Source: a virus | DNA: 64,000 nt | Reading direction: 5' to 3' (one strand) | Virus record (IMG/VR): IMGVR_UViG_3300005563_000035 | Coordinates: 6,368-70,367 of that record | Shown: piece after piece, positions 1-63,778 of the stretch | Layout of the letters: every line of letters begins with the position of its first letter | Position numbering within the stretch: position 1 is the first letter of the stretch | Notes under the pieces: model-generated | The model's database searches: none | The model's input: only the letters and a program-made list of their open reading frames with translations | Told to the model about the DNA's origin: nothing | Program-made: the position numbers and the translations under genes

Positions 1-660
1 AGTCAGGAGATGCCCGAGGAGGAGATCGTTGATCGGGCCGTCGCCAACACCGGCCGTGTGTCGTACTCCAGCCTGCTGACCGGCAAGTTCGATGATGAGG
101 ACTGGAACCGCCTGGCTGAAGGCATCGACCAGCTTACCCGGCTGCCTCTTCACATAGACGATCAAGGCGGACTGACGCTTGGTGACATTCGCACCAAGGC
201 CCGCAGCGTCAAGGGGCTGAAGTTGCTGGTGATCGACTATCTGCAACTGTGCTATGGCAGCGGCGGCAGGCAGAGCAACCGCAACGAGGAGATTGGCGAG
301 ATCAGCCGCGGCATCAAGACGCTTGCGAAGGAGCTCGGATGCGCGGTGCTCTTGCTATCGCAGCTGAACAGAGACGTCGAGAGCCGGCCAGACAAAGAGC
401 CGCGCTTGTCTGACCTGCGGGAGTCGGGATCGATCGAGCAGGACGCCGACGCCGTCATCTTCCTGTGGCCGGTCAAGGATTACAGCGACTTCGGTCACAA
501 GCTGGTCGCGTGCGGAGTCGCGGCCAATCGCAGCGGTTCGACGGGGAAGTTCGGCATGGACTTCCAAGGTCGCTACCAACTCTGGAACGAGAGCTCAGAC
601 GAGCTCGCGCCGAACATCGCGCCGGCTGCTCGCGCGAAACGCCACTTTGAAGCCGATTGA
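1..660 (+). CDS. dnaB: Replicative DNA helicase DnaB-like, C-terminal part (5' truncated by window edge)
   Basis: Motifs SQEM, VIDYLQL, LLSQLNR, PRLSDLRESGSIEQDAD; frame is open from position 1. Confidence 0.93.
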   Translation, partial: SQEMPEEEIVDRAVANTGRVSYSSLLTGKFDDEDWNRLAEGIDQLTRLPLHIDDQGGLTLGDIRTKARSVKGLKLLVIDYLQLCYGSGGRQSNRNEEIGEISRGIKTLAKELGCAVLLLSQLNRDVESRPDKEPRLSDLRESGSIEQDADAVIFLWPVKDYSDFGHKLVACGVAANRSGSTGKFGMDFQGRYQLWNESSDELAPNIAPAARAKRHFEAD

Positions 661-52249: not shown

Positions 52250-52981
52250 TCATGGGCTCACCCCTTGCAGTGTTGCTTGAATGAATCGCGCCGCGACCTG
52301 CGGGACGATGGCATTGCGGGCGGCATCAGTTGCCGCCACGCATCGGGGAATCCCATCGTCCACAACTCGAAACCTGGCAAGTGCTTGTTGCCATCCGGCG
52401 TTCCACGGAAGTAGTTGCTCGAGCCGCCCCATTCGTCGATCCGGCCCGACACATGGTTCTTGCCGTGATTGCTCGTTCCGCTCGGTGTCGGAAGCAACCC
52501 ACCAGAGGCGGTCACGTCGATGCGGGGCACCAGCGCTCGCGGCTTCGATTGGGATCGCCCCAAAGGCGAAACCCACGGCTTCCAGATCACTTTGCACAAG
52601 TGCGAGCCAGTCAGCAGAACTCGCAACCTGCTCTCCAAAGACGATTGCAGGGCGGCACTGCTCGATGAGATGGAAGAAGGCCGGCCATAGGTGCCGCTCG
52701 TCAGCAAACCCAGACTTCTTGCCTTGGACGCTGAAAGGTTGGCAAGGGCAGGAGCCGGTCCAAACAGGTCGCGTGTCGTCCCACCCGGCCATTCGCAGCG
52801 CAAGCGACCAGCCGCCGATGCCGGCGAAGAAGTGGCACTGCGTGAATCCTCGCAGGTCGTCGGGGAAAACATCCTCGATGCTCCGTTCATCGACAACGCC
52901 AGGCGCGATGTGGCCGGCGTCGATCAGGTTGCGCAGCCATGCGGCGGCGTAGGGATCGATCTCGTTGTAGTAGGCCGTCAC
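52250..52981 (-). CDS. DNA cytosine-C5 methyltransferase, main (alpha-like) polypeptide
   Basis: Motifs FFAGIGG (I), GSCPCQPFS (IV), EQV (VI), H.RDR (VIII), NAIVPQVA (X). Confidence 0.88.
   Translation of the reverse strand: MTAYYNEIDPYAAAWLRNLIDAGHIAPGVVDERSIEDVFPDDLRGFTQCHFFAGIGGWSLALRMAGWDDTRPVWTGSCPCQPFSVQGKKSGFADERHLWPAFFHLIEQCRPAIVFGEQVASSADWLALVQSDLEAVGFAFGAIPIEAASAGAPHRRDRLWWVASDTERNEQSRQEPCVGPDRRMGRLEQLLPWNAGWQQALARFRVVDDGIPRCVAATDAARNAIVPQVAARFIQATLQGVSP
52258..52896 (-). CDS. Nested alternative-frame ORF carrying MTase TRD/motif IX (beta-like polypeptide); true start uncertain
   Basis: LLPTP and ELWTMGFPDAW (motif IX-like), both absent from the main frame. Confidence 0.6.
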   Translation of the reverse strand: MSMNGASRMFSPTTCEDSRSATSSPASAAGRLRCEWPGGTTRDLFGPAPALANLSASKARSLGLLTSGTYGRPSSISSSSAALQSSLESRLRVLLTGSHLCKVIWKPWVSPLGRSQSKPRALVPRIDVTASGGLLPTPSGTSNHGKNHVSGRIDEWGGSSNYFRGTPDGNKHLPGFELWTMGFPDAWRQLMPPAMPSSRRSRRDSFKQHCKG

Positions 52982-53800: not shown

Positions 53801-54069
53801 TGCGCGCGTTCCTTGGATTCGCGCTCGAGACGATCAGCGGCTGCCTGGACGACTTCGCTGACGGTCATGGGCCTGCGGGCCTCACCAGCGAGTGCAGCGC
53901 GCGTGCGCTCGATGAGGTCCTCGGATCGGTTGGCTCCGGCGCGGAGGGTAGCGTCCGTCTCGGCCAGCAAGCTGCGGAAGAGGCTCGCCTCGGCCATGGC
54001 GGCGCCACGCTCGCGGCTGGCTGCAGCGGCCTCGCGGGCGTAGTAGCTGGAGGTGGTGCGGGGGTTCAT
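53797..54069 (-). CDS. Hypothetical protein
   Basis: ATGA-coupled, start MNPRTT. Confidence 0.5.
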   Translation of the reverse strand: MNPRTTSSYYAREAAAASRERGAAMAEASLFRSLLAETDATLRAGANRSEDLIERTRAALAGEARRPMTVSEVVQAAADRLERESKERAQ

Positions 54070-54257
54070 GCAAAAAGTTCCTGCTGTGCCGGCAGTTGCG
54101 CGGCGGGGATGTCGAACCACTCGATCTCGGCGGGCCACGGCTGGCGGTCGACCGGCATGGCGATGAACGAGCCCTTACGGCAAGCCTCGACATGGAGCCA
54201 GTACCAGGCGGCGGACCAGCCATCAATGGCGCGCTGAGTGAAGATCGGCGGCATCAT
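54066..54257 (-). CDS. Small hypothetical protein
   Basis: ATGA overlap with the RT stop; MMPPIFTQ...QQELFA. Confidence 0.45.
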   Translation of the reverse strand: MMPPIFTQRAIDGWSAAWYWLHVEACRKGSFIAMPVDRQPWPAEIEWFDIPAAQLPAQQELFA

Positions 54258-55615
54258 TGGTTTGCCGCCTTGCGATAGACCTTGGTGCAATCGGCATTGA
54301 CCGTGAACCCGCGCTTGCGAGCTACGTTGGCCAGGCGCGATCGCAGCGCATGGCTGGCCGGCGACTGACGCATCAGGCCGAAATAGCTGTTGATGGCGGC
54401 TGGGTAGTCCACGTCCGCGGTTGCCTCCAGGCGACGCAACGCATTGGGCAGCGCATTGGTGCGCGGCACGCGTCGCCACGGCTTGATGACGTGGCCCACG
54501 AAGTCGACGCCACGGTCTACCGGCTGCAGGACGGTCTTGCGCACATTCAGGCGCGCGCCGAGCCGAGCAGGCAAGAACTCGGCAATTCGGCCCAGCCATT
54601 CGACCAGCGCGGCGCTTGACTCATGCAACAACACGAAGTCATCGACGTAGCGCACGTATCGCGGCGCCCGCAGCCGGTGCTTGACGAATTGGTCGAGCGC
54701 GTCGAGGTGAACGTTGGCGAAGAACTGTGACGACAGATTGCCGATCGGCAGGCCCGTGTCCGCCGGCGCGTTGAACAGGCTCTTGTGTGGTGGCACCAGG
54801 CGCATGACCGCCGGCGGCGAGCGCACCTCGACGTCCTCGCGCGGATCATGGAACAAGATCGTCTCGGCCAGCACCTGCCACCATTCGCCATCAATGCGCG
54901 GCACGAGCTGCTCGCATAACACGCGCTTGTCGATGGCCACGAAGAAGTTGGCCAGGTCACACTTCAGGTAGAACGCGGGCAGACTCCAGTTGCGCGTGAC
55001 GCCGCGCGCTTGGTGCTCAAGGCGACGTGCCGCGTACAGTGTGCCGCGGCCGGGAATGCACGCGCAACTGTCTGCCACGAACGAGGCGTAGAAGCGGGGC
55101 GAGATCTGGTTGTAGAGGAGGTGGTGCACCACCCGATCGCGGAAGCCGGCCGCCCAGATCTCGCGTGGCTTTGGACGCCGCGCGACGAAGCACGTCGATC
55201 GCCCAGGCCGGTAGGCGCCTGAGACCAGATCCTCGTGCAGGTCGCACAGCTCTCGCTCTAGGTGGGCCTCGAATGCGAGGGCGCTCGCGCTGTTGCGCTT
55301 CGTGCGCCGGCAGTCCAGGTAGGCCCGGACCAGGGAGGAGAACAGGTTTGGATCTGCGGACGGCCCGAGCGCAGTTCTTGTTGTTGACGTTGTTCCAGTC
55401 CTGGTTGCCGTTGTTGAAGTTCTGCATCCAGGCGTTCGAGCCAGAGTCGCGCTATCGACGTCGCCAAGCCGAAGGCTGTCGCCGATCAGCCCGGAAACTG
55501 CACCGGACAGAGCTGGACGCGCCAGCCGGTTCCCGAGTGTGTGCGTGGCGGTGGCCTCGTGAGCCAGCGGCGCGACCAGATTCATGCGCACGGGCATGAG
55601 AGCCTTGACTGTCAT
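54254..55615 (-). CDS. brt: DGR reverse transcriptase (start uncertain: ATG 55615 coupled to avd, or a non-ATG start near 55345)
   Basis: KPREIWA..FRDRVVHH, YLKCD...FF..ID, GLPIGNLSSQFFAN (DGR-type SQ motif), RYVDDF, GVDFVG. Confidence 0.95.
   Translation of the reverse strand: MTVKALMPVRMNLVAPLAHEATATHTLGNRLARPALSGAVSGLIGDSLRLGDVDSATLARTPGCRTSTTATRTGTTSTTRTALGPSADPNLFSSLVRAYLDCRRTKRNSASALAFEAHLERELCDLHEDLVSGAYRPGRSTCFVARRPKPREIWAAGFRDRVVHHLLYNQISPRFYASFVADSCACIPGRGTLYAARRLEHQARGVTRNWSLPAFYLKCDLANFFVAIDKRVLCEQLVPRIDGEWWQVLAETILFHDPREDVEVRSPPAVMRLVPPHKSLFNAPADTGLPIGNLSSQFFANVHLDALDQFVKHRLRAPRYVRYVDDFVLLHESSAALVEWLGRIAEFLPARLGARLNVRKTVLQPVDRGVDFVGHVIKPWRRVPRTNALPNALRRLEATADVDYPAAINSYFGLMRQSPASHALRSRLANVARKRGFTVNADCTKVYRKAANQ
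55353..55442 (-). repeat. DGR template repeat (TR)
   Basis: 90 bp containing 10 AAC codons in the target frame; aligns without gaps to two VRs. Confidence 0.95.
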
Positions 55616-55977
55616 GCTGCAGGCGCCCCGTTCGCTGCGGACTTGAGCCACCCACCACCTTGCTTGCCGATGCTGTCCAGGAGCTGCACCGCGTCCGCCC
55701 ACACCTTCGTGGCCACGTAGCGGTTGTCGTGGCTCACGCGCAGCAGCACGGTCAGCGTGCGCTGGTGGGACAGCAGGTTCTCGACGTGGCGCGCCCGCTC
55801 TCCGCGCTTGGTCGCGTTGGCGAGCGCCATCTCGTCGAGCATGTCGATGCAGTGCTGGCTGATCTTCTCGCCCAGGCTACGCTTGACGCCTCGCGGCATC
55901 TGTTCCTGCGCGCGCACGGCCAGCGTCAGCAGCTGGGTACCCGTGCGGTAGATCGGCAAGTCATGGTGGAGGGCCAT
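55612..55977 (-). CDS. avd: DGR accessory variability determinant (Avd/bAvd four-helix bundle)
   Basis: LPIYR...L.......MPR..K..LG..I...LR...D......IGKQ.GGWLK; located between targets and TR/RT. Confidence 0.9.
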   Translation of the reverse strand: MALHHDLPIYRTGTQLLTLAVRAQEQMPRGVKRSLGEKISQHCIDMLDEMALANATKRGERARHVENLLSHQRTLTVLLRVSHDNRYVATKVWADAVQLLDSIGKQGGGWLKSAANGAPAA

Positions 55978-56005
55978 GGCTCAGTTCCTCAAAAGGATTG
56001 AAGGA

Positions 56006-56455
56006 TCAAGCGGAAACTCTGCGGACGGCCCGAGCGCAGCCCTCGTAGCCGACGCCGTCCCAGCCCTGGTAGCCGTAGTCGAAGCCCTGCATCCAGGCGT
56101 CCGAGCCGTTCTCGTGCGCTTCGCTCGACCAGTAGTAGCGCGCCTGGAAGCCGTCCTTGGCGTTGGCGAACAGCAGCGACTGCTCGCGCCGCGTCGGCAG
56201 CTCGCCGCCGGCCTTGGCCGCCCACGTCTTGGCGGCGGCCCAGTTCGCCTCGGTTTCGCCGGGCAGGAGCACCAGGTGGTGCGCCGGCGTTCCGTCGTCG
56301 TTCAGGATCAGGCCGGCGTAGGTCTCGCCTTCGGCCAGCGAGATCGATGCCGCGGCCACGGTGATGACGCGTGGCCGCGCGCGTTCGAAGGCGGCGATCT
56401 TCTCGGCCAGGCGCACCTGGTCGGACTTGAGATCCTCGAGGGTGATCGTGGTCAT
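56006..56455 (-). CDS. DGR target protein 1 (DUF1566/CLec-fold)
   Basis: W..A..WA...GG.LPTR.E..LLFAN....F....YWSS......AW.Q.F..G.Q........ARAVRR; C-terminal VR. Confidence 0.9.
   Translation of the reverse strand: MTTITLEDLKSDQVRLAEKIAAFERARPRVITVAAASISLAEGETYAGLILNDDGTPAHHLVLLPGETEANWAAAKTWAAKAGGELPTRREQSLLFANAKDGFQARYYWSSEAHENGSDAWMQGFDYGYQGWDGVGYEGCARAVRRVSA
56018..56107 (-). repeat. DGR variable repeat VR1
   Basis: 16 mismatches vs TR in 90 bp, all at TR adenines (minus strand). Confidence 0.95.
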
Positions 56456-56479
56456 GATGCGTTGGCTCCTTCGAAAGGA

Positions 56480-56884
56480 TCAAAGGACCAAAGGAATCAT
56501 GCGGACGGCCCGAGCGCAGTTCTTGAAGTTGACGTAGTCCCAGTACTGGTCGCCGTAGTGGAAGAACTGCATCCAGGCGCCCGAGCCGATGTAGGCCTCG
56601 GACGTCCAGTGCCAGTCCTTCTCGAACTGGTCCTTCGCGTTGGCGAAGAGCATGGCCGCGGCCGGGCGCGCCGGCAGCTCGCCGTCGACGCTCTCGGCCC
56701 ACTTCTTCGCGTCGGCCCAGTTCAGATCCTTGCCGGGCTTGTCGGCCAGCAGCACGACAGCGACATGCACGCCGCTGGGCAGCGTCAGGATGCCTTGGAA
56801 CGTGCCGCCCTCGAGCGGCGAACCCAGCGCCAGTGCGGCAACGGCCGCGAGCGCGAGGGGCTTGATTTCGGTCTTGGTGGTCAT
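56480..56884 (-). CDS. DGR target protein 2 (DUF1566/CLec-fold)
   Basis: Paralog of target 1: W..AKKWA....G.LP.R....LFAN....F....HWTS.....AWMQ.F..G.Q........ARAVR. Confidence 0.9.
   Translation of the reverse strand: MTTKTEIKPLALAAVAALALGSPLEGGTFQGILTLPSGVHVAVVLLADKPGKDLNWADAKKWAESVDGELPARPAAAMLFANAKDQFEKDWHWTSEAYIGSGAWMQFFHYGDQYWDYVNFKNCARAVRMIPLVL
56500..56587 (-). repeat. DGR variable repeat VR2
   Basis: 12 mismatches vs TR in 88 bp; 11 at TR adenines, one at a G. Confidence 0.93.
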
Positions 56885-57016
56885 GGGTGCCTTTCTGGTG
56901 GTGGGATAAGGAAAGAGGCGGCAGCCCTTGGGGTGGCCAGGAAACGCTGCGGTGCTTGGAAGGGGGAGGACTTAAGCCGCGCAGCGACCGCCGGCCAGGG
57001 CTGCCGCCGGAAAGGG

Positions 57017-58390
57017 TTAGGACTCACAGGCGCAGACGATCTCGCCGATGCGCTCCACGATGGCGTCAGCGATGGCGAGGAACTGAGCTTCTGAATACAG
57101 CTTGGCGGCCTTCTTGGTGGCGATCGGTTGGAAGCCGAGAGCCGCCAGGCCTTCGGCGTTGATGCTGAAGACGCCGAACCGTGCGTTGAGCGCGCCGAGC
57201 GTCAGCGTGGGCTCGTTGGACGCGGCCGGACGTTCGGCGAACTGGATCGGCGACTCGGTCGGGAGCAACACGCCGGTCGAGACGGTCATGCGGCCGGAGA
57301 AGTGCCACGCTTGGTTGGCGACCTCATCCATGTCGAGCGGGACGGCAGCGGGGCGGTCGACGGGCAGAACGGCGTCGGCGATCGACGGCATGGCGGCGAG
57401 GGCGTCGTCGCTGAGTTGGTCCGGCATGGCGTCCTGGCTCAGGTCGTCGGCGGCTTCCTCGGCCTTCTCCGCGATCAGCGCGGCACTGGCTTCGGCGGCG
57501 TGGGCGTTCGCCTCGTCCTCGGCTTGTTGTTGCGCGAGATTGACGTACCTCTGGGCGACACGCGCGGCGTGGGCGGACTCCTCGTCGGCCTTGGCCTGCT
57601 CCGCCGCCGCGATGGCCGCGAGCTTGGCGTCGAGCTCGGCTTGCTTGGCCGCCATCTCCGCTTCGCGCGCAGCCAGCTCGGCGGCCTTGCGCTCGTTCTC
57701 GATGCGCTGCGCCTCATGGGCGGCAGCCTCGTCCTCGGCGCGCTTGGTGGCGTCGAACAGGACTTGCAGCGCTTCGAGCGTCTCCGCCTTCTGGATCTCG
57801 GCGCCGACGGCGAACTCTTCCCACTGCTCGGGGATGATGTCAATGCCGGCCACGCCGTTGATGACGGTCAGGATCTGCTCGGAGGTGCGGCCCTGCGCCT
57901 GGATGGCGTAGCCGGCGAGGCGTGTGATGTTGGCCCGATGGGCAGCGACACGCTCGGCTTCCTTGCGCTCACGCTCGGCCTTTTCGGCGGCGAGTTCGGC
58001 CTCGCGGGCCTTGATGGCATCGTCGTACAGGCTCTCCGTCGGCTGGACGATGGCGATGAGTCGCTCGGCCTCGCTGGCGATGACGGTCTTCAGGCCGTTG
58101 ACCTCGTCCTTGATCGCCTTCTCGGCGCGCTGGACGACGAACCGGCCGTTCTCGCGCAGGTCGTGGCGGGCTTCCTTCGCCGCCGCCAGGCCCTTGGGCG
58201 TGGAGCAGTCGATCGCGACGTTCTCGTAGCGGGTCACGAGCGCCTGCAGGACGGGCTCGGTGGCCTTGAACTGGGCCAGGACGGCGGCCTTGATGCTGGT
58301 GACGACGGCGGCGGGCGCGGCCGGGGTGGCGACAGTGACGGCGACTTCGGCGGGCGCAGCGGCCTCGGATTCGTACAGTTGGTCGAACAT
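57017..58390 (-). CDS. Coiled-coil protein of the recombination module (DUF1351-like)
   Basis: Long Ala/Glu/Lys coiled coil; C-terminal LTLG.LN.R.G......L..LGF.......A.LY. Confidence 0.7.
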   Translation of the reverse strand: MFDQLYESEAAAPAEVAVTVATPAAPAAVVTSIKAAVLAQFKATEPVLQALVTRYENVAIDCSTPKGLAAAKEARHDLRENGRFVVQRAEKAIKDEVNGLKTVIASEAERLIAIVQPTESLYDDAIKAREAELAAEKAERERKEAERVAAHRANITRLAGYAIQAQGRTSEQILTVINGVAGIDIIPEQWEEFAVGAEIQKAETLEALQVLFDATKRAEDEAAAHEAQRIENERKAAELAAREAEMAAKQAELDAKLAAIAAAEQAKADEESAHAARVAQRYVNLAQQQAEDEANAHAAEASAALIAEKAEEAADDLSQDAMPDQLSDDALAAMPSIADAVLPVDRPAAVPLDMDEVANQAWHFSGRMTVSTGVLLPTESPIQFAERPAASNEPTLTLGALNARFGVFSINAEGLAALGFQPIATKKAAKLYSEAQFLAIADAIVERIGEIVCACES

Positions 58391-58400
58391 GGTGTTCCCT

Positions 58401-59273
58401 TCAGAAGAAGTCCGGGAGTGCGACCGGCGCAGCAGCGCGCGGAGCAGCGGGGCGAGGTGCTGGCGTGGCGGCCGGGGCGACGGGCTGACTCGGCTGGCCG
58501 GGCAGGTCTTCCCAGGGAAGCGTTGCCGGCTGCTTGCCGTTGTGCTCGCGGTCGAACTCGTTGACGACCTCGCGGTAGTACCGGCGGGCAGCAGCAACCT
58601 TGTCGGCGATCAGCGACTCGAGCGCGCGGTCGCGCTCCACCAGCCACGTCGTCCAGCGATGGGCCTCGGGGATGTGGTCCACGAAGTGGAGATGCGGGGG
58701 TTCGAAGCCGACCAGTTCCTCGGGAGTGCTGACGAGAACGTAGTCCACACTCCAGGTCTCGGCGTCCCACAGCATCATGTAGCCGCGCATCTGCCATTCG
58801 TAGCCCGAGTCGTAGCAGTCGGCCAGGACGATCGGCATCGACTCCATGGAGTAGGGGGCCTTGATGTCACGGCCATGCCGGATCGGCGCATCGAAGATGT
58901 CGCACTCGCCGGAGATCGTGCCGTTGTTGCGGCGCTCGGTGTTCTTGACTAGCGGGCGACCGGTCAGGCGCGCCAGCATGGCGATGCAGTCGGATTCGAC
59001 TGCGCGGCCCTTGAGGATCGGGCGCGTCTCGATCTCGCCCGGCTCGTAGCCGTAGATCGCTTCACGCACCAGCTTGCGGACGTGGGTCTTGCCACCAGCC
59101 GACAGGCTCTTGCGGCGGACGTCCTCCAGGACGGACTTCTCTTCCTCGCTGCGCTTGGTCTTGGCGATGATCGCCTGCACCTCGGGCGTGACGTGCAGCG
59201 GATCCAGGTCGGCGTTCTCGGGCTTGGCCATCAGGTAGCCGATGGACGAGCATCGAATGATGAGTTCGCTCAT
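58401..59273 (-). CDS. YqaJ/lambda-exonuclease-like nuclease
   Basis: RCSS, KG...E, GECD......DIK, YEWQMRGYM.L. Confidence 0.85.
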   Translation of the reverse strand: MSELIIRCSSIGYLMAKPENADLDPLHVTPEVQAIIAKTKRSEEEKSVLEDVRRKSLSAGGKTHVRKLVREAIYGYEPGEIETRPILKGRAVESDCIAMLARLTGRPLVKNTERRNNGTISGECDIFDAPIRHGRDIKAPYSMESMPIVLADCYDSGYEWQMRGYMMLWDAETWSVDYVLVSTPEELVGFEPPHLHFVDHIPEAHRWTTWLVERDRALESLIADKVAAARRYYREVVNEFDREHNGKQPATLPWEDLPGQPSQPVAPAATPAPRPAAPRAAAPVALPDFF

Positions 59274-60139
59274 TGCGCACCCCCATCCGCCTGCCGCGCT
59301 GCCTTACGCATTCCGCCGAAGTCGCCGCTCAACCCCTTCTGTTCACGGGCCGAGAGCTTCGCCCACCAGGCCGTCAGGGCGACCATGCCGTTCATCGAGG
59401 CGTCGCGGCCGGCATCCCGCAGAGCGTCGAGCGGATCGGGCGCGCCATCGGACGCAGCCGCGTCTCCGCTCTTGGCCCGCGGCTTCGCGCGGTTCTCGTC
59501 ATCCTCGCCGCCCGTCGCGGTGCCGGTGATGGCGAGCAGGGACTGGCGCTTGAGGTAGCTCGCGGCAGACTGCGCGTTCTGGATCGGCGAGTTGACGCTC
59601 TGGTCATCGGCCGGGCCATCGAGATCGAGCGAGTCGGAATGCCCGGCGCGGTGCGACAGGATGCACGACACCCAGACCCAGGCGATCTGCTTCTCGACAC
59701 CGTCGATGGTGAACGTCTTGCTGCCGAAGGTCTGCTTGTGCCGGAAGCCGAAACCGTGCTTGGACAGGGCGGGCGACAGCATGCGGCAGACGCTGTCGAA
59801 CTCGGCCTGCTTGAACGATCCGCCACGACCGCGGTCCACTTCCTTGGACTTCGGAATGATGACGTTCTCGCCGCGGAAGGCGGCGAAGTCGGCCTCGAAG
59901 GCGAGGCGCGCGTCGCGTTGGCGGTCGGCCTCCTGTAGCTCGCGGTACTGGATGTCCATCGCCATCAGACGCTCCAGGCGGGCGATGTCGTTGTCGCCGC
60001 TCTGGGTGGCGATGCGCAGCAGATCGGCGGGCGTCACGTCGCGCGCGGCCGGCATGTTCTCGGGGCGGATCGCCACCGGTTGCGCAGCTCGGGGCTCGAG
60101 CGCCAGTTCGGTGATGTCCGCGACTTGGGCGGTTTGCAT
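59270..60139 (-). CDS. ERF-family single-strand annealing protein
   Basis: P.L.KHG...H..GHS...Q...SA.SYLKR.SL.AI.G.A....DD. Confidence 0.85.
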   Translation of the reverse strand: MQTAQVADITELALEPRAAQPVAIRPENMPAARDVTPADLLRIATQSGDNDIARLERLMAMDIQYRELQEADRQRDARLAFEADFAAFRGENVIIPKSKEVDRGRGGSFKQAEFDSVCRMLSPALSKHGFGFRHKQTFGSKTFTIDGVEKQIAWVWVSCILSHRAGHSDSLDLDGPADDQSVNSPIQNAQSAASYLKRQSLLAITGTATGGEDDENRAKPRAKSGDAAASDGAPDPLDALRDAGRDASMNGMVALTAWWAKLSAREQKGLSGDFGGMRKAARQADGGAQ

Positions 60140-62594: not shown

Positions 62595-62993
62595 ATGAAG
62601 TACACGCTGGTCAGAGAGGGCGGCCTCTTGCTTGTGACCGCCATAGGTGAGGTTGACCTGGAGGCGGCCTTGCGACTGCAAGCTCACGCCTTGAAAGAGT
62701 GGAAGGCGAAGCCGGCCCGCGCCGTGCTCTACGACCTCCGGTTCACCACAGTTCGAATCACCCCCGAGGATAGCGAGTTGCTGTACACCGCCGCTGTGCG
62801 CTGGGGCTTCACCCGCTGCACCACGAACGCCATCGTGACGCCCGAGCGGTCGTTCCAGCCGTTCCTTGCCCAGGCAGCCCGCTACGCGGCTCATGGTGTC
62901 TGCTATGCCATCTTCACCGACTACGACCGCGCTTTGCAGTGGTCGCTGGACCATCCGCTGCCGGTTGCGCCGCGGCGGGAAGCCCGGCTGTAA
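62595..62993 (+). CDS. Hypothetical protein, STAS/SEC14-like
   Basis: G.VD...VL.DLR...AIV...IF.DY..A..W pattern. Confidence 0.55.
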   Translation: MKYTLVREGGLLLVTAIGEVDLEAALRLQAHALKEWKAKPARAVLYDLRFTTVRITPEDSELLYTAAVRWGFTRCTTNAIVTPERSFQPFLAQAARYAAHGVCYAIFTDYDRALQWSLDHPLPVAPRREARL

Positions 62994-63387
62994 TCTGAAC
63001 GGTCATTCCGTGCGCCACCAGGCCGCGCACGGAGTCCCACAGGGAGAACAGTTGCTCCCGCTGGTCGGGGGGTGCTTCGTCCAACCAGCGGGCGACCTGG
63101 TTCGCCATGCCGGACTGAGTCGTCTCGGCCGCTAGTTGCGGTAACCGTTCCGGATGGAAGTCCGGCACCAGCAGTTGCCATGGATCGACACGCAAGCCGC
63201 CTGCGATTGTCTCGAGCGCCGCCAGCGAAATGTCGCTCTCGTCGTCCAACACGCGTTGGGCGGTCCCGTTGGTCAGCCCCAGCTTGATCAGCCGGCTGGT
63301 TCCCTTCTCGTTTGGTCGCAGGGGACTGCGATAAGCCGAGAGGGCGACCGCGTTCTCCCCTAGCACTTTCTTGATTTTCGGTGCCAT
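62914..63387 (-). CDS. CI-like repressor (XRE HTH, no obvious S24 peptidase)
   Basis: L.EN..AL...T.QR.......SL..LE.IA..L.V.PWQLL; divergent from cro across the operators. Confidence 0.7.
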   Translation of the reverse strand: MAPKIKKVLGENAVALSAYRSPLRPNEKGTSRLIKLGLTNGTAQRVLDDESDISLAALETIAGGLRVDPWQLLVPDFHPERLPQLAAETTQSGMANQVARWLDEAPPDQREQLFSLWDSVRGLVAHGMTVQITAGLPAAAQPAADGPATTAKRGRSR

Positions 63388-63453
63388 CCGCGCACGGTAA
63401 GCAAAATTGCCTACCGAATGTGGTTGACTCGAAGTTACCGAATGCGGTATCTT
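63386..63453 (+). promoter_or_regulatory. oR/pR switch region with three operators
   Basis: ATCCG-CGCA-CGGTA (63386), TACCG-AATG-TGGTT (63412), TACCG-AATG-CGGTA (63436); TTGACT-18-TATCTT. Confidence 0.75.
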
Positions 63454-63460
63454 ACGGGCT

Positions 63461-63778
63461 ATGCGCATCGAAATCCCCTCCGCCAAGCAGGTAGCCGAGG
63501 CCCTTCAAGGGCTCTCGATGCTGCAGATCGAACACGTCGCAGCCCTGACGGGGCTCGGGGCGACAACGATCTACAAGATCAAAAGAGGAATCACGGAAGA
63601 CCCGGGCATTGACACCGCCCGGATCATCGTGGCCCGCGTGCCGGAGGCGCTCACCGCCCCGCGAGAGGTCGCCCTCGCTGACATTGAGGCCGCCCGTCTG
63701 GCGAAGACCGAGGCAGCCGAGAGAGCGCTGCGCGCTGGGAAGCGCGGCCGTAAGGCGAAGCGCACTTCCGCCACTTAG
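63461..63778 (+). CDS. Cro-like HTH regulator
   Basis: VA..TGLG..TIYKIKRG.T.DPG..T. Confidence 0.75.
   Translation: MRIEIPSAKQVAEALQGLSMLQIEHVAALTGLGATTIYKIKRGITEDPGIDTARIIVARVPEALTAPREVALADIEAARLAKTEAAERALRAGKRGRKAKRTSAT

Follow-up and report, generated by a model that had tools for sequence, protein, structure and literature searches.

A two-target diversity-generating retroelement with small lectin-fold targets in the early arm of a temperate-phage clade

What does a phage diversify when its diversity-generating retroelement (DGR) lies far from its tail genes? Phage DGRs diversify tail fibres to switch receptors, according to the textbook view. We address this question with a DGR cassette of the virus record IMGVR_UViG_3300005563_000035, using a window that consists of the last 64 kb of the 70,367-bp IMG/VR record (64% G+C; all positions below are those of the window). 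The cassette occupies the minus strand from 56884 to 54254, in the order target 1, target 2, avd, template repeat (TR) and reverse transcriptase (RT), and each target gene carries a variable repeat (VR):

56480..56884, minus strand: target 1, an open reading frame (ORF) of 134 residues
56500..56587, minus strand: VR of target 1, with 12 mismatches to the TR, 11 of them at TR adenines
56006..56455, minus strand: target 2, an ORF of 149 residues, with an N-terminal helix and a DUF1566-type C-lectin domain
56020..56107, minus strand: VR of target 2, with 16 of 16 mismatches at TR adenines
55612..55977, minus strand: avd, 121 residues; Pfam bAvd, PHROG 3206
55355..55442, minus strand: TR, 88 nucleotides, with 27 adenines and 10 AAC codons
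54254..55384, minus strand: DGR reverse transcriptase, given as the region of homology; the true start is uncertain

The explanation that we favour, with a probability of roughly 0.6, is that this is an active DGR, one of a large clade found in temperate phages of the Burkholderiales and other, neighbouring Proteobacteria, and that its targets are early, soluble, intracellular binding proteins. Of the features by which a DGR is recognised, an adenine-restricted TR/VR pair, an RT with intact motifs, Avd, a C-lectin-fold target and natural variants are present. A first-pass annotation of the same DNA had described a single 90-bp repeat aligned to both targets; the TR does align without gaps to the 3' ends of the two adjacent genes, whereas the length of 90 nucleotides holds for target 2 only, the repeat common to the TR and target 1 being 88 nucleotides long. 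The mismatch counts given there were reproduced: all 16 mismatches of the target 2 VR (13 A>G and 3 A>T) and 11 of the 12 in the target 1 VR are at TR adenines, the twelfth being a G>T change. With adenine at 27 of the 88 TR positions, the probability of such a bias arising by chance is 6e-9 for target 2 and 2e-5 for target 1. The adenine-containing codons of the TR include the 10 AAC codons, a number that agrees with the earlier count, plus ATG, two CAG, GAC and AAG, and the stop codons of both target ORFs are located 14-21 nucleotides past the VR ends.

Both enzymatic components claimed in the first-pass annotation are supported by family matches. The RT scores above the cut-off of Pfam RVT_1 (4.5e-9) and matches PHROG 1423 at 1e-103, and its nearest solved structure is 8ub7_A (E 5.4e-30), which we take to be the RT of the Bordetella phage BPP-1. 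Its translation contains the motifs GNLSSQ and YVDD, and the SQ dipeptide is described as typical of DGR RTs in the part of the DiGReF survey available (DiGReF 2012, PMC3521204). Avd matches Pfam bAvd (2e-10, 41.6 bits against a cut-off of 40) and PHROG 3206, "Avd protein of DGR" (6.6e-21), as well as NCBIfam DivGenRetAVD below the cut-off (9.4e-12); a sequence search for a solved relative of Avd returned none. No stop codon interrupts the RT frame across the TR as far as an ATG at 55615 that overlaps the avd stop codon (ATGA, 55615-55612), and a start codon (ATG, GTG or TTG) is absent from the stretch between the TR and the conserved RT (window 55345-55615). Inclusion of the TR in the RT reading frame was considered as a conserved feature and rejected, the frame being open through the TR in just 34 of 76 related loci. 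The avd-TR-RT spacer RNA has no significant fold (z -1.64). A 63-residue ORF (54066-54257, minus strand) begins at an ATGA that overlaps the RT stop codon; it has no family match, and a similar ORF was found in only 2 of 158 related loci.

The adenine-restricted VR polymorphism that the first-pass annotation proposed as a check is present in natural copies of the cassette. A metagenome contig of 3,269 bp (L165) matches window positions 55119-57431 at 98.6%. Over 2,234 bp of the comparison (55128-57361), all 21 differences fall inside the two 88-nucleotide VRs (chance probability of ~7e-24), 10 of them in target 2, all at TR-adenine sites, and 11 in target 1, 10 of these at TR-adenine sites; the TR, avd and the non-VR parts of both targets are identical. 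The only difference that is not at a TR-adenine site is the G>T site of the window, where L165 retains the TR base. Because all differences are confined to the VRs and 20 of the 21 coincide with TR adenines, both targets have been rewritten independently and recently. Comparison at the protein level agrees. Two members of the target 2 cluster in a public protein collection (P0122 and P0123; identity within clusters of 90% or more) differ only at residues 119-139, a member of the target 1 cluster (P0125) differs only at residues 102-122, and every altered residue in these three proteins lies in a codon that holds an A in the TR; one further member of the target 2 cluster (P0121) has three additional changes outside the VR. 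None of the copies has a change in the ATG and CAG codons, though these contain adenine, and 58 family members all share Q123 and Q130, a constancy that fits selection on scaffold residues. A search for sequencing runs that contain this DNA returned 16 DNA runs and no RNA run; in the four runs analysed, as Logan contigs rather than raw reads, most matches were fragments of relatives, and a 494-nucleotide contig of run X2 covers target 1 with 11 other letters. A near-identical cassette is present on a contig of 531,812 bp. Judged by these comparisons of nucleotide and protein copies, adenine-specific rewriting of both targets by the DGR is shown to have occurred recently in nature.

What kind of proteins are being rewritten? 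The structural models agree with the first-pass description of two paralogous C-lectin proteins of 134 and 149 residues. The AlphaFold2 model of target 2 (predicted local distance difference test, pLDDT, of 94.5) contains a helix at residues 6-25 followed by a C-type-lectin fold; its top structural match is the C-terminal domain of Bdellovibrio Bd2740 (8oks_A; Z 12.9, root-mean-square deviation (rmsd) 2.3, 100 residues aligned), followed by the C-terminal (DUF1566) domain of Legionella Lcl (8q4e_A; Z 12.4, and E 1.3e-5 in Foldseek) and then by many animal C-type lectins. The target 1 model is of lower confidence (pLDDT 77.5, and below 50 in the VR part), and its top structural match is the same Legionella Lcl domain (8q4e_A; Z 7.5, rmsd 3.1, 102 residues aligned, model range 10..130), level with poxvirus A33-type lectin domains. 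Against Pfam Lcl_C (PF07603), target 2 reaches 19.3 bits (E 0.0014), under the gathering cut-off of 34.9, and target 1 has no Pfam match and hits PHROG 4245, of unknown function, at 6e-5; PF07603 is carried, however, by many target 2 homologues at 52-68% identity. Given the sub-threshold score on the one hand, and these homologues and the fold match on the other, both targets are divergent relatives of Lcl_C and are not members by Pfam's own rule. The models show, within the limits of prediction, that both targets are stand-alone, single-domain proteins of the DUF1566-type C-lectin fold with the variable residues in the C-terminal part. Neither model contains a fibre shaft, as had been stated on first reading, or any other added domain.

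The families of the two targets consist almost entirely of such small proteins. At E<=0.001, target 1 has 115 homologues and target 2 has 2002 of near-equal length, compared to just 10 longer ones. Four of these 10 (P0245, P0246, P0247 and P0252) are read, from two matches each, as tandem chains of two lectin domains, and two of the four begin straight into a lectin domain; they are a weak hint that paired paralogues work side by side, or else gene-call artefacts. For the suggestion made in the first-pass annotation that the two targets form a heterodimer we found no supporting evidence; the predicted complex of target 2 with target 1 (with alignments, no controls), at scores of 0.28 and 0.18 compared to a mark of 0.32, speaks neither for nor against it.

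The N-termini of the targets bear on the possibility of export, with one target or both working at the cell envelope, either of the lysogen or of an infected cell, for instance by binding to the surface or by excluding superinfecting phages, similarly to the Legionella pneumophila DGR target LdtA. Using a crude hydrophobicity rule rather than a dedicated signal-peptide predictor, we found that the first-pass statement that signal peptides are absent holds for target 2, in whose family 0 of 120 N-termini are signal-like, but less clearly for target 1, which together with 61 of 116 of its homologues is weakly signal-like (K, then 13 hydrophobic residues). The solved relatives, which we take to be extracellular domains, would suit export as well. 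However, the n-region of target 1 has no net positive charge, and no lipobox was found in 236 sequences of the target families. The hydrophobic stretch coincides with the conserved first strand region, within the range aligned to Lcl_C, so that cleavage there would remove part of the fold; distant homologues of target 1 do not have it and start right at the conserved beginning of the domain, "LPxhGxPLEGG". As the stretch marks the domain start and lies inside the Lcl_C-aligned range, we think that it is part of the fold of target 1. LdtA is, according to the part of the survey available, a surface-exported lipoprotein encoded on an integrative conjugative element, with a variable domain classed as DUF1566 / CLec2, category d (Wu 2018), and thus DUF1566-class DGR targets do include a surface lipoprotein; the likeness to the targets described here, both of which match the Legionella Lcl_C domain, is in the DUF1566-type variable domain, and the differences are that our targets have no lipobox and are genes of a phage early region. 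Taken together, we consider export of the targets distinctly unlikely.

The position of the cassette in the phage genome is the second line of evidence for the reading that we favour. The phage is a temperate myovirus. The genes for the terminase, major head protein, sheath, tape measure, baseplate and fibre are on the plus strand at 17-38 kb, with the tail genes at 27-38 kb, and the called genes of the opposite arm run leftward from ~62.4 kb to an integrase-sized ORF at 46.4 kb. The leftward order is a zinc-ribbon protein, small ORFs, ERF, exonuclease, a 457-residue protein, the DGR, small ORFs, a C5 methyltransferase, further ORFs and ORFs in the xis and int positions; the last two are candidates, named by eye and from the integrase census described below. 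The neighbours with family matches are the following:

59270-60139, minus strand: ERF-family annealing protein; Pfam ERF 7.9e-6, PHROG 155 9e-15
58401-59273, minus strand: exonuclease; PHROG 5715 5e-57
52250-52981, minus strand: C5 cytosine methyltransferase; PF00145 3.8e-15

These matches bear out the location between the ERF/exonuclease module and the methyltransferase, far from the tail genes, that had been noted before. It had also been stated that the operon is controlled by a repressor. The leftward early arm is confirmed, but the repressor is not: a divergent gene pair at 62.9-63.8 kb resembles an immunity region, and its rightward gene has a sub-threshold match to HTH_3, whereas the 190-residue "repressor" (62914-63486) has no family match, and therefore repressor control can be deduced only from the divergent gene layout. 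Two neighbouring genes deserve description. For the 457-residue Ala/Glu-rich protein directly upstream of the cassette (57017-58390, minus strand), the only matches are to PHROGs without a known function (phrog_16469, 3.5e-22); Pfam, NCBIfam and PADLOC returned none. The C5 methyltransferase ORF is only 243 residues long and spans profile positions 66-168 of 324; it may be split or truncated.

Is this arrangement peculiar to one phage? We surveyed the best 80 of 371 IMG/VR relatives of the RT, plus the window, i.e., 81 loci. The number of VRs per locus was 0 in 5, 1 in 7, 2 in 61, 3 in 7 and 4 in 1; some of the loci with fewer than two VRs are cut by contig ends. Across the surveyed loci, 1996 of 2121 TR-VR mismatches were at adenines. 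Thus, 69 of the 81 loci have at least two VRs, and an architecture of two or more small targets is standard in this RT clade and not exceptional; both the Burkholderia cenocepacia phage Magia and a survey of 2012 precede the present locus. In species-representative genomes we found 82 relatives of target 2, almost all of them, by title, from Burkholderiales, Rhodocyclales and allied Betaproteobacteria; the odd titles are a Xanthobacteraceae metagenome-assembled genome, an Enterobacteriaceae metagenome-assembled genome, a Marmoricola isolate and a 629-bp Chromohalobacter contig. The RT was found in the flank of 62 of 78 genome loci. Many of the prophages (L087, L093, L100, L131 and others) have one or two extra target-like small genes 3-9 kb upstream, similarly to gp57 of Magia; the target-family profile found no such extra gene in the window.

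The neighbourhood is shared as well. The Pfam census of the 6.5 kb upstream (149 ORFs from 33 of 42 eligible loci) yielded Lcl_C 8, DUF2303 6, CII 4 and YqaJ 4, together with ParB, AAA, RdgC, ERF, Rha, Lar and others; of its 27 families, 25 are listed, and none of these is a virion family. Downstream (149 ORFs from 35 of 42 loci), the families listed, 25 of 67, include Phage_integrase 16 and DUF5131 5, PAPS reductase, methylases and HNH, followed by host housekeeping genes; the integrase matches in the related loci are downstream and on the same strand. The early-region context is, judged by these family matches, common to prophages of Burkholderiales. In terms of gene order and family matches, the cassette is shown to be a conserved part of a leftward early arm that comprises recombination genes, DGR, methylase, xis and int, outside the virion module.

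These observations have to be set against the alternative suggested by the best-studied systems, namely that the small lectins are virion accessories, made separately and docking on the tail fibres or the baseplate, so that, like that of BPP-1, the DGR alters host range. Bd2740, a relative by fold, is presumably a fibre-tip adhesin, and the N-terminal helix of target 2 could dock on something. Every characterised phage DGR target is, in the parts of the two papers available, a receptor-binding protein (Roux 2021; Tentaclin paper); viral DGR targets are classed there as mostly tail proteins (Roux 2021), and the two-target DGRs of gut phages are treated as receptor binders (Tentaclin paper). The targets described here, however, are ~18 kb away from the tail module, on the opposite strand, in the early arm. 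Seven virion proteins of this phage have no match in the flanks of 158 related loci, and neither these loci nor the two Pfam censuses, as to the families listed, show a virion gene adjoining the cassette; moreover, a shaft or anchor domain is absent from both target models, and the 10 longer homologues provide, in the four that were interpreted, tandem lectin domains and not fibre fusions. The earlier statement that neither the tail fibre nor the tailspike carries a VR is also upheld: a TR search of the whole 70,367-bp record returned the TR itself and the two VRs and nothing else, so that there is no tail-fibre VR, and the target-family profile search of the phage matched only target 2, target 1 and the TR. 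On this evidence, a virion role of the targets is quite unlikely.

The sequences that flank the VRs suggest how the targets may be addressed. The GC-rich 3' end of 20 nucleotides is identical in the TR and both VRs, and the sequences diverge only past it; cases in which the initiation of mutagenic homing (IMH) site and its TR counterpart, IMH*, are identical have been noted in the part of the survey available (Wu 2018). Three features of the flanks were recorded:

55978..56019, minus strand: T-rich periodic stretch after the VR of target 2, not present after the TR
56456..56499, minus strand: T-rich periodic stretch after the VR of target 1, with periodicity compared across the clade
56918..57008, minus strand: long GC-rich stem-loop in the 132-nucleotide gap between the 457-residue gene and target 1

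Clade-wide, the 40 nucleotides after 152 VRs contain 40% T compared to 29% after 75 TRs, and the self-identity at lag 4 and lag 8 is 0.43 and 0.41 after the VRs compared to 0.20 and 0.22 after the TRs. The stretches after the VRs of the clade (loci L006-L085) are variants of GATCCTTCAATCCTTT, with periodicity of 4 and 8 nucleotides. In BPP-1, a GC-rich inverted repeat follows the IMH, and such a repeat is found downstream of the VR in only 34% of DGRs (both from the part available of Wu 2018). Here, by contrast, the VRs are followed by the T-rich periodic stretch, and inspection by eye of the 55-nucleotide stretches after the clade VRs, which were read unfolded, showed no GC-rich hairpin; the terminator scan requires a T run and is therefore blind to cruciforms. 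The T-rich stretch may be the target-recognition element of this clade, in place of the BPP-1 hairpin.

The stem-loop upstream of target 1 has a predicted RNA fold of -61.1 kcal/mol (z -4.97; none of 200 shuffles was as good) and is followed by a C/U-rich run; it is possibly a terminator or a regulatory structure. This structure is relevant to another explanation, in which the cassette serves the lysogen, with variable binders expressed from the prophage to sense or block competitor phages, i.e., a DGR-based defence. A strong stem-loop between the cassette and the upstream early genes could permit separate regulation, and immune systems linked to DGRs have been suggested for the genomes of cellular organisms in the parts available of two papers (PMC10053308, PMC10907252). 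Conversely, the promoter/terminator scan found nothing at the cassette, no promoter-like site included, and the cassette lies in an arm that, judging from the layout, would normally be repressed in lysogens. An effector domain is neither attached to nor adjoining the targets, and neither PADLOC nor NCBIfam has a match for the targets or for the small ORFs around them, the only PADLOC match being that of the RT to generic RT models. Lysogen defence is thus very unlikely in our estimation.

Our preferred reading, that of early intracellular binders, would involve the following steps: (i) RT and Avd would copy the TR RNA, with random bases placed opposite A; (ii) the cDNA would replace a VR, addressed by the 20-nucleotide GC-rich 3' end and perhaps also by the T-rich periodic stretch that is found after VRs only; (iii) with TR copying followed by VR replacement, each genome would carry one variant pair; (iv) the target proteins would be expressed along with the early genes, when the phage infects or is induced, and would act as soluble binders inside the cell. 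An intracellular role of the targets is plausible, and a counter-defence or host-takeover role, as had been envisaged on first reading, would be pure inference. The neighbours, i.e., methyltransferases, PAPS reductase and Lar in the censuses and a nuclease inhibitor in a Shewanella phage, fit an anti-defence neighbourhood but prove nothing. A more specific proposal is that the DGRs of the clade build a ready-made, population-wide library of small cytoplasmic early binders that are selected to neutralise variable proteins of host defence or proteins of competitor phages; as it stands, we regard it as unlikely.

It should be noted that several observations weigh against early intracellular binders. 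A virion protein or an exported one could also be encoded in an early operon, the target 1 family includes the signal-like N-termini described above, and the closest solved relatives (Lcl, Bd2740 and animal C-type lectins) presumably act outside the cell. The sigma-70-like promoter scan found no site at the cassette, so that the timing of expression is deduced only indirectly. In 16 of the 78 genome loci there was no RT match within <=10 kb on each side (less at contig ends), and hence some family members may not be DGR targets. Finally, the test for structural genes relies on similarity to this phage's own virion proteins, and the downstream census on the listed fraction of its families.

Among the closest described systems is that of phage Magia (MT701587). 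The DGR region of Magia shares 67% DNA identity over 47% of the 4-kb query, and the arrangement on one strand is the same, with a recombinase and nuclease, gp47, gp46, Avd and RT, and later the integrase; gp47 is a small lectin-fold target of 120 residues, gp46 is a second small protein of 154 residues, hypothetical in the record, and a terminator is annotated directly upstream of the first target, equivalent to the stem-loop described here. The differences are that Magia has RecT instead of ERF and a third, remote candidate target, gp57, and that natural VR variants are unreported there, whereas both targets are shown to vary here. The part of the Magia paper available describes a potential DGR whose two targets, genes 47 and 57, are "relatively short reading frames", and proposes only adaptation or host range as its role (Microbiol Resour Announc 2021, PMC7883833). 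The Shewanella phage vB_Sb_QDWS (OK094664) has the order target-target-avd-RT-methylase, followed further on by the integrase, on one strand, with a host nuclease inhibitor encoded near the cassette; its record differs in having no DGR annotation.

BPP-1 (mtd-avd-TR-brt) shares the target-avd-TR-RT order, Avd, adenine-specific mutagenesis and the location of the VR at the 3' end of a C-lectin-fold gene, but has one target, the tail-fibre tip protein Mtd, in contrast to two small stand-alone targets here. A virion tail target encoded with the structural genes, as in BPP-1, is not what is found in this phage, the targets being in the early arm on the opposite strand. DGRs with two targets are not rare: they make up ~13% of all DGRs in the part available of Wu 2018, and two-VR DGRs are listed in Burkholderia, Ralstonia, Sideroxydans and Collimonas in that of the 2012 survey (DiGReF 2012, PMC3521204). 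We liken its entries for Burkholderia thailandensis MSMB43, B. glumae BGR1, Ralstonia pickettii 12J and Sideroxydans ES-1 to the present locus by VR count only, and the survey differs in that the part available provides lists without genomic context or function (PMC3521204). In a literature search, with the supplementary tables of Wu 2018 and Roux 2021 outside its scope, we found no paper that assigns a function to small DGR targets of an early operon, the note in the Magia paper being the only one on the topic. This layout occurs in many related phages and has been published before, and the element is a further member of a known architecture.

These results suggest an answer to the question posed at the outset: in this clade, tail fibres are replaced as DGR targets by two or more tiny lectin-fold proteins, each standing alone, from the recombination-to-integrase early arm, and in the phage analysed here both targets have demonstrably been rewritten in nature. 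The existence of a cultured member of the clade, Magia, makes the role of the targets directly testable. If the proposal of a cytoplasmic library is true, it would mark the first demonstration of a DGR that serves the conflict between phage and host within the cell, and not adsorption.

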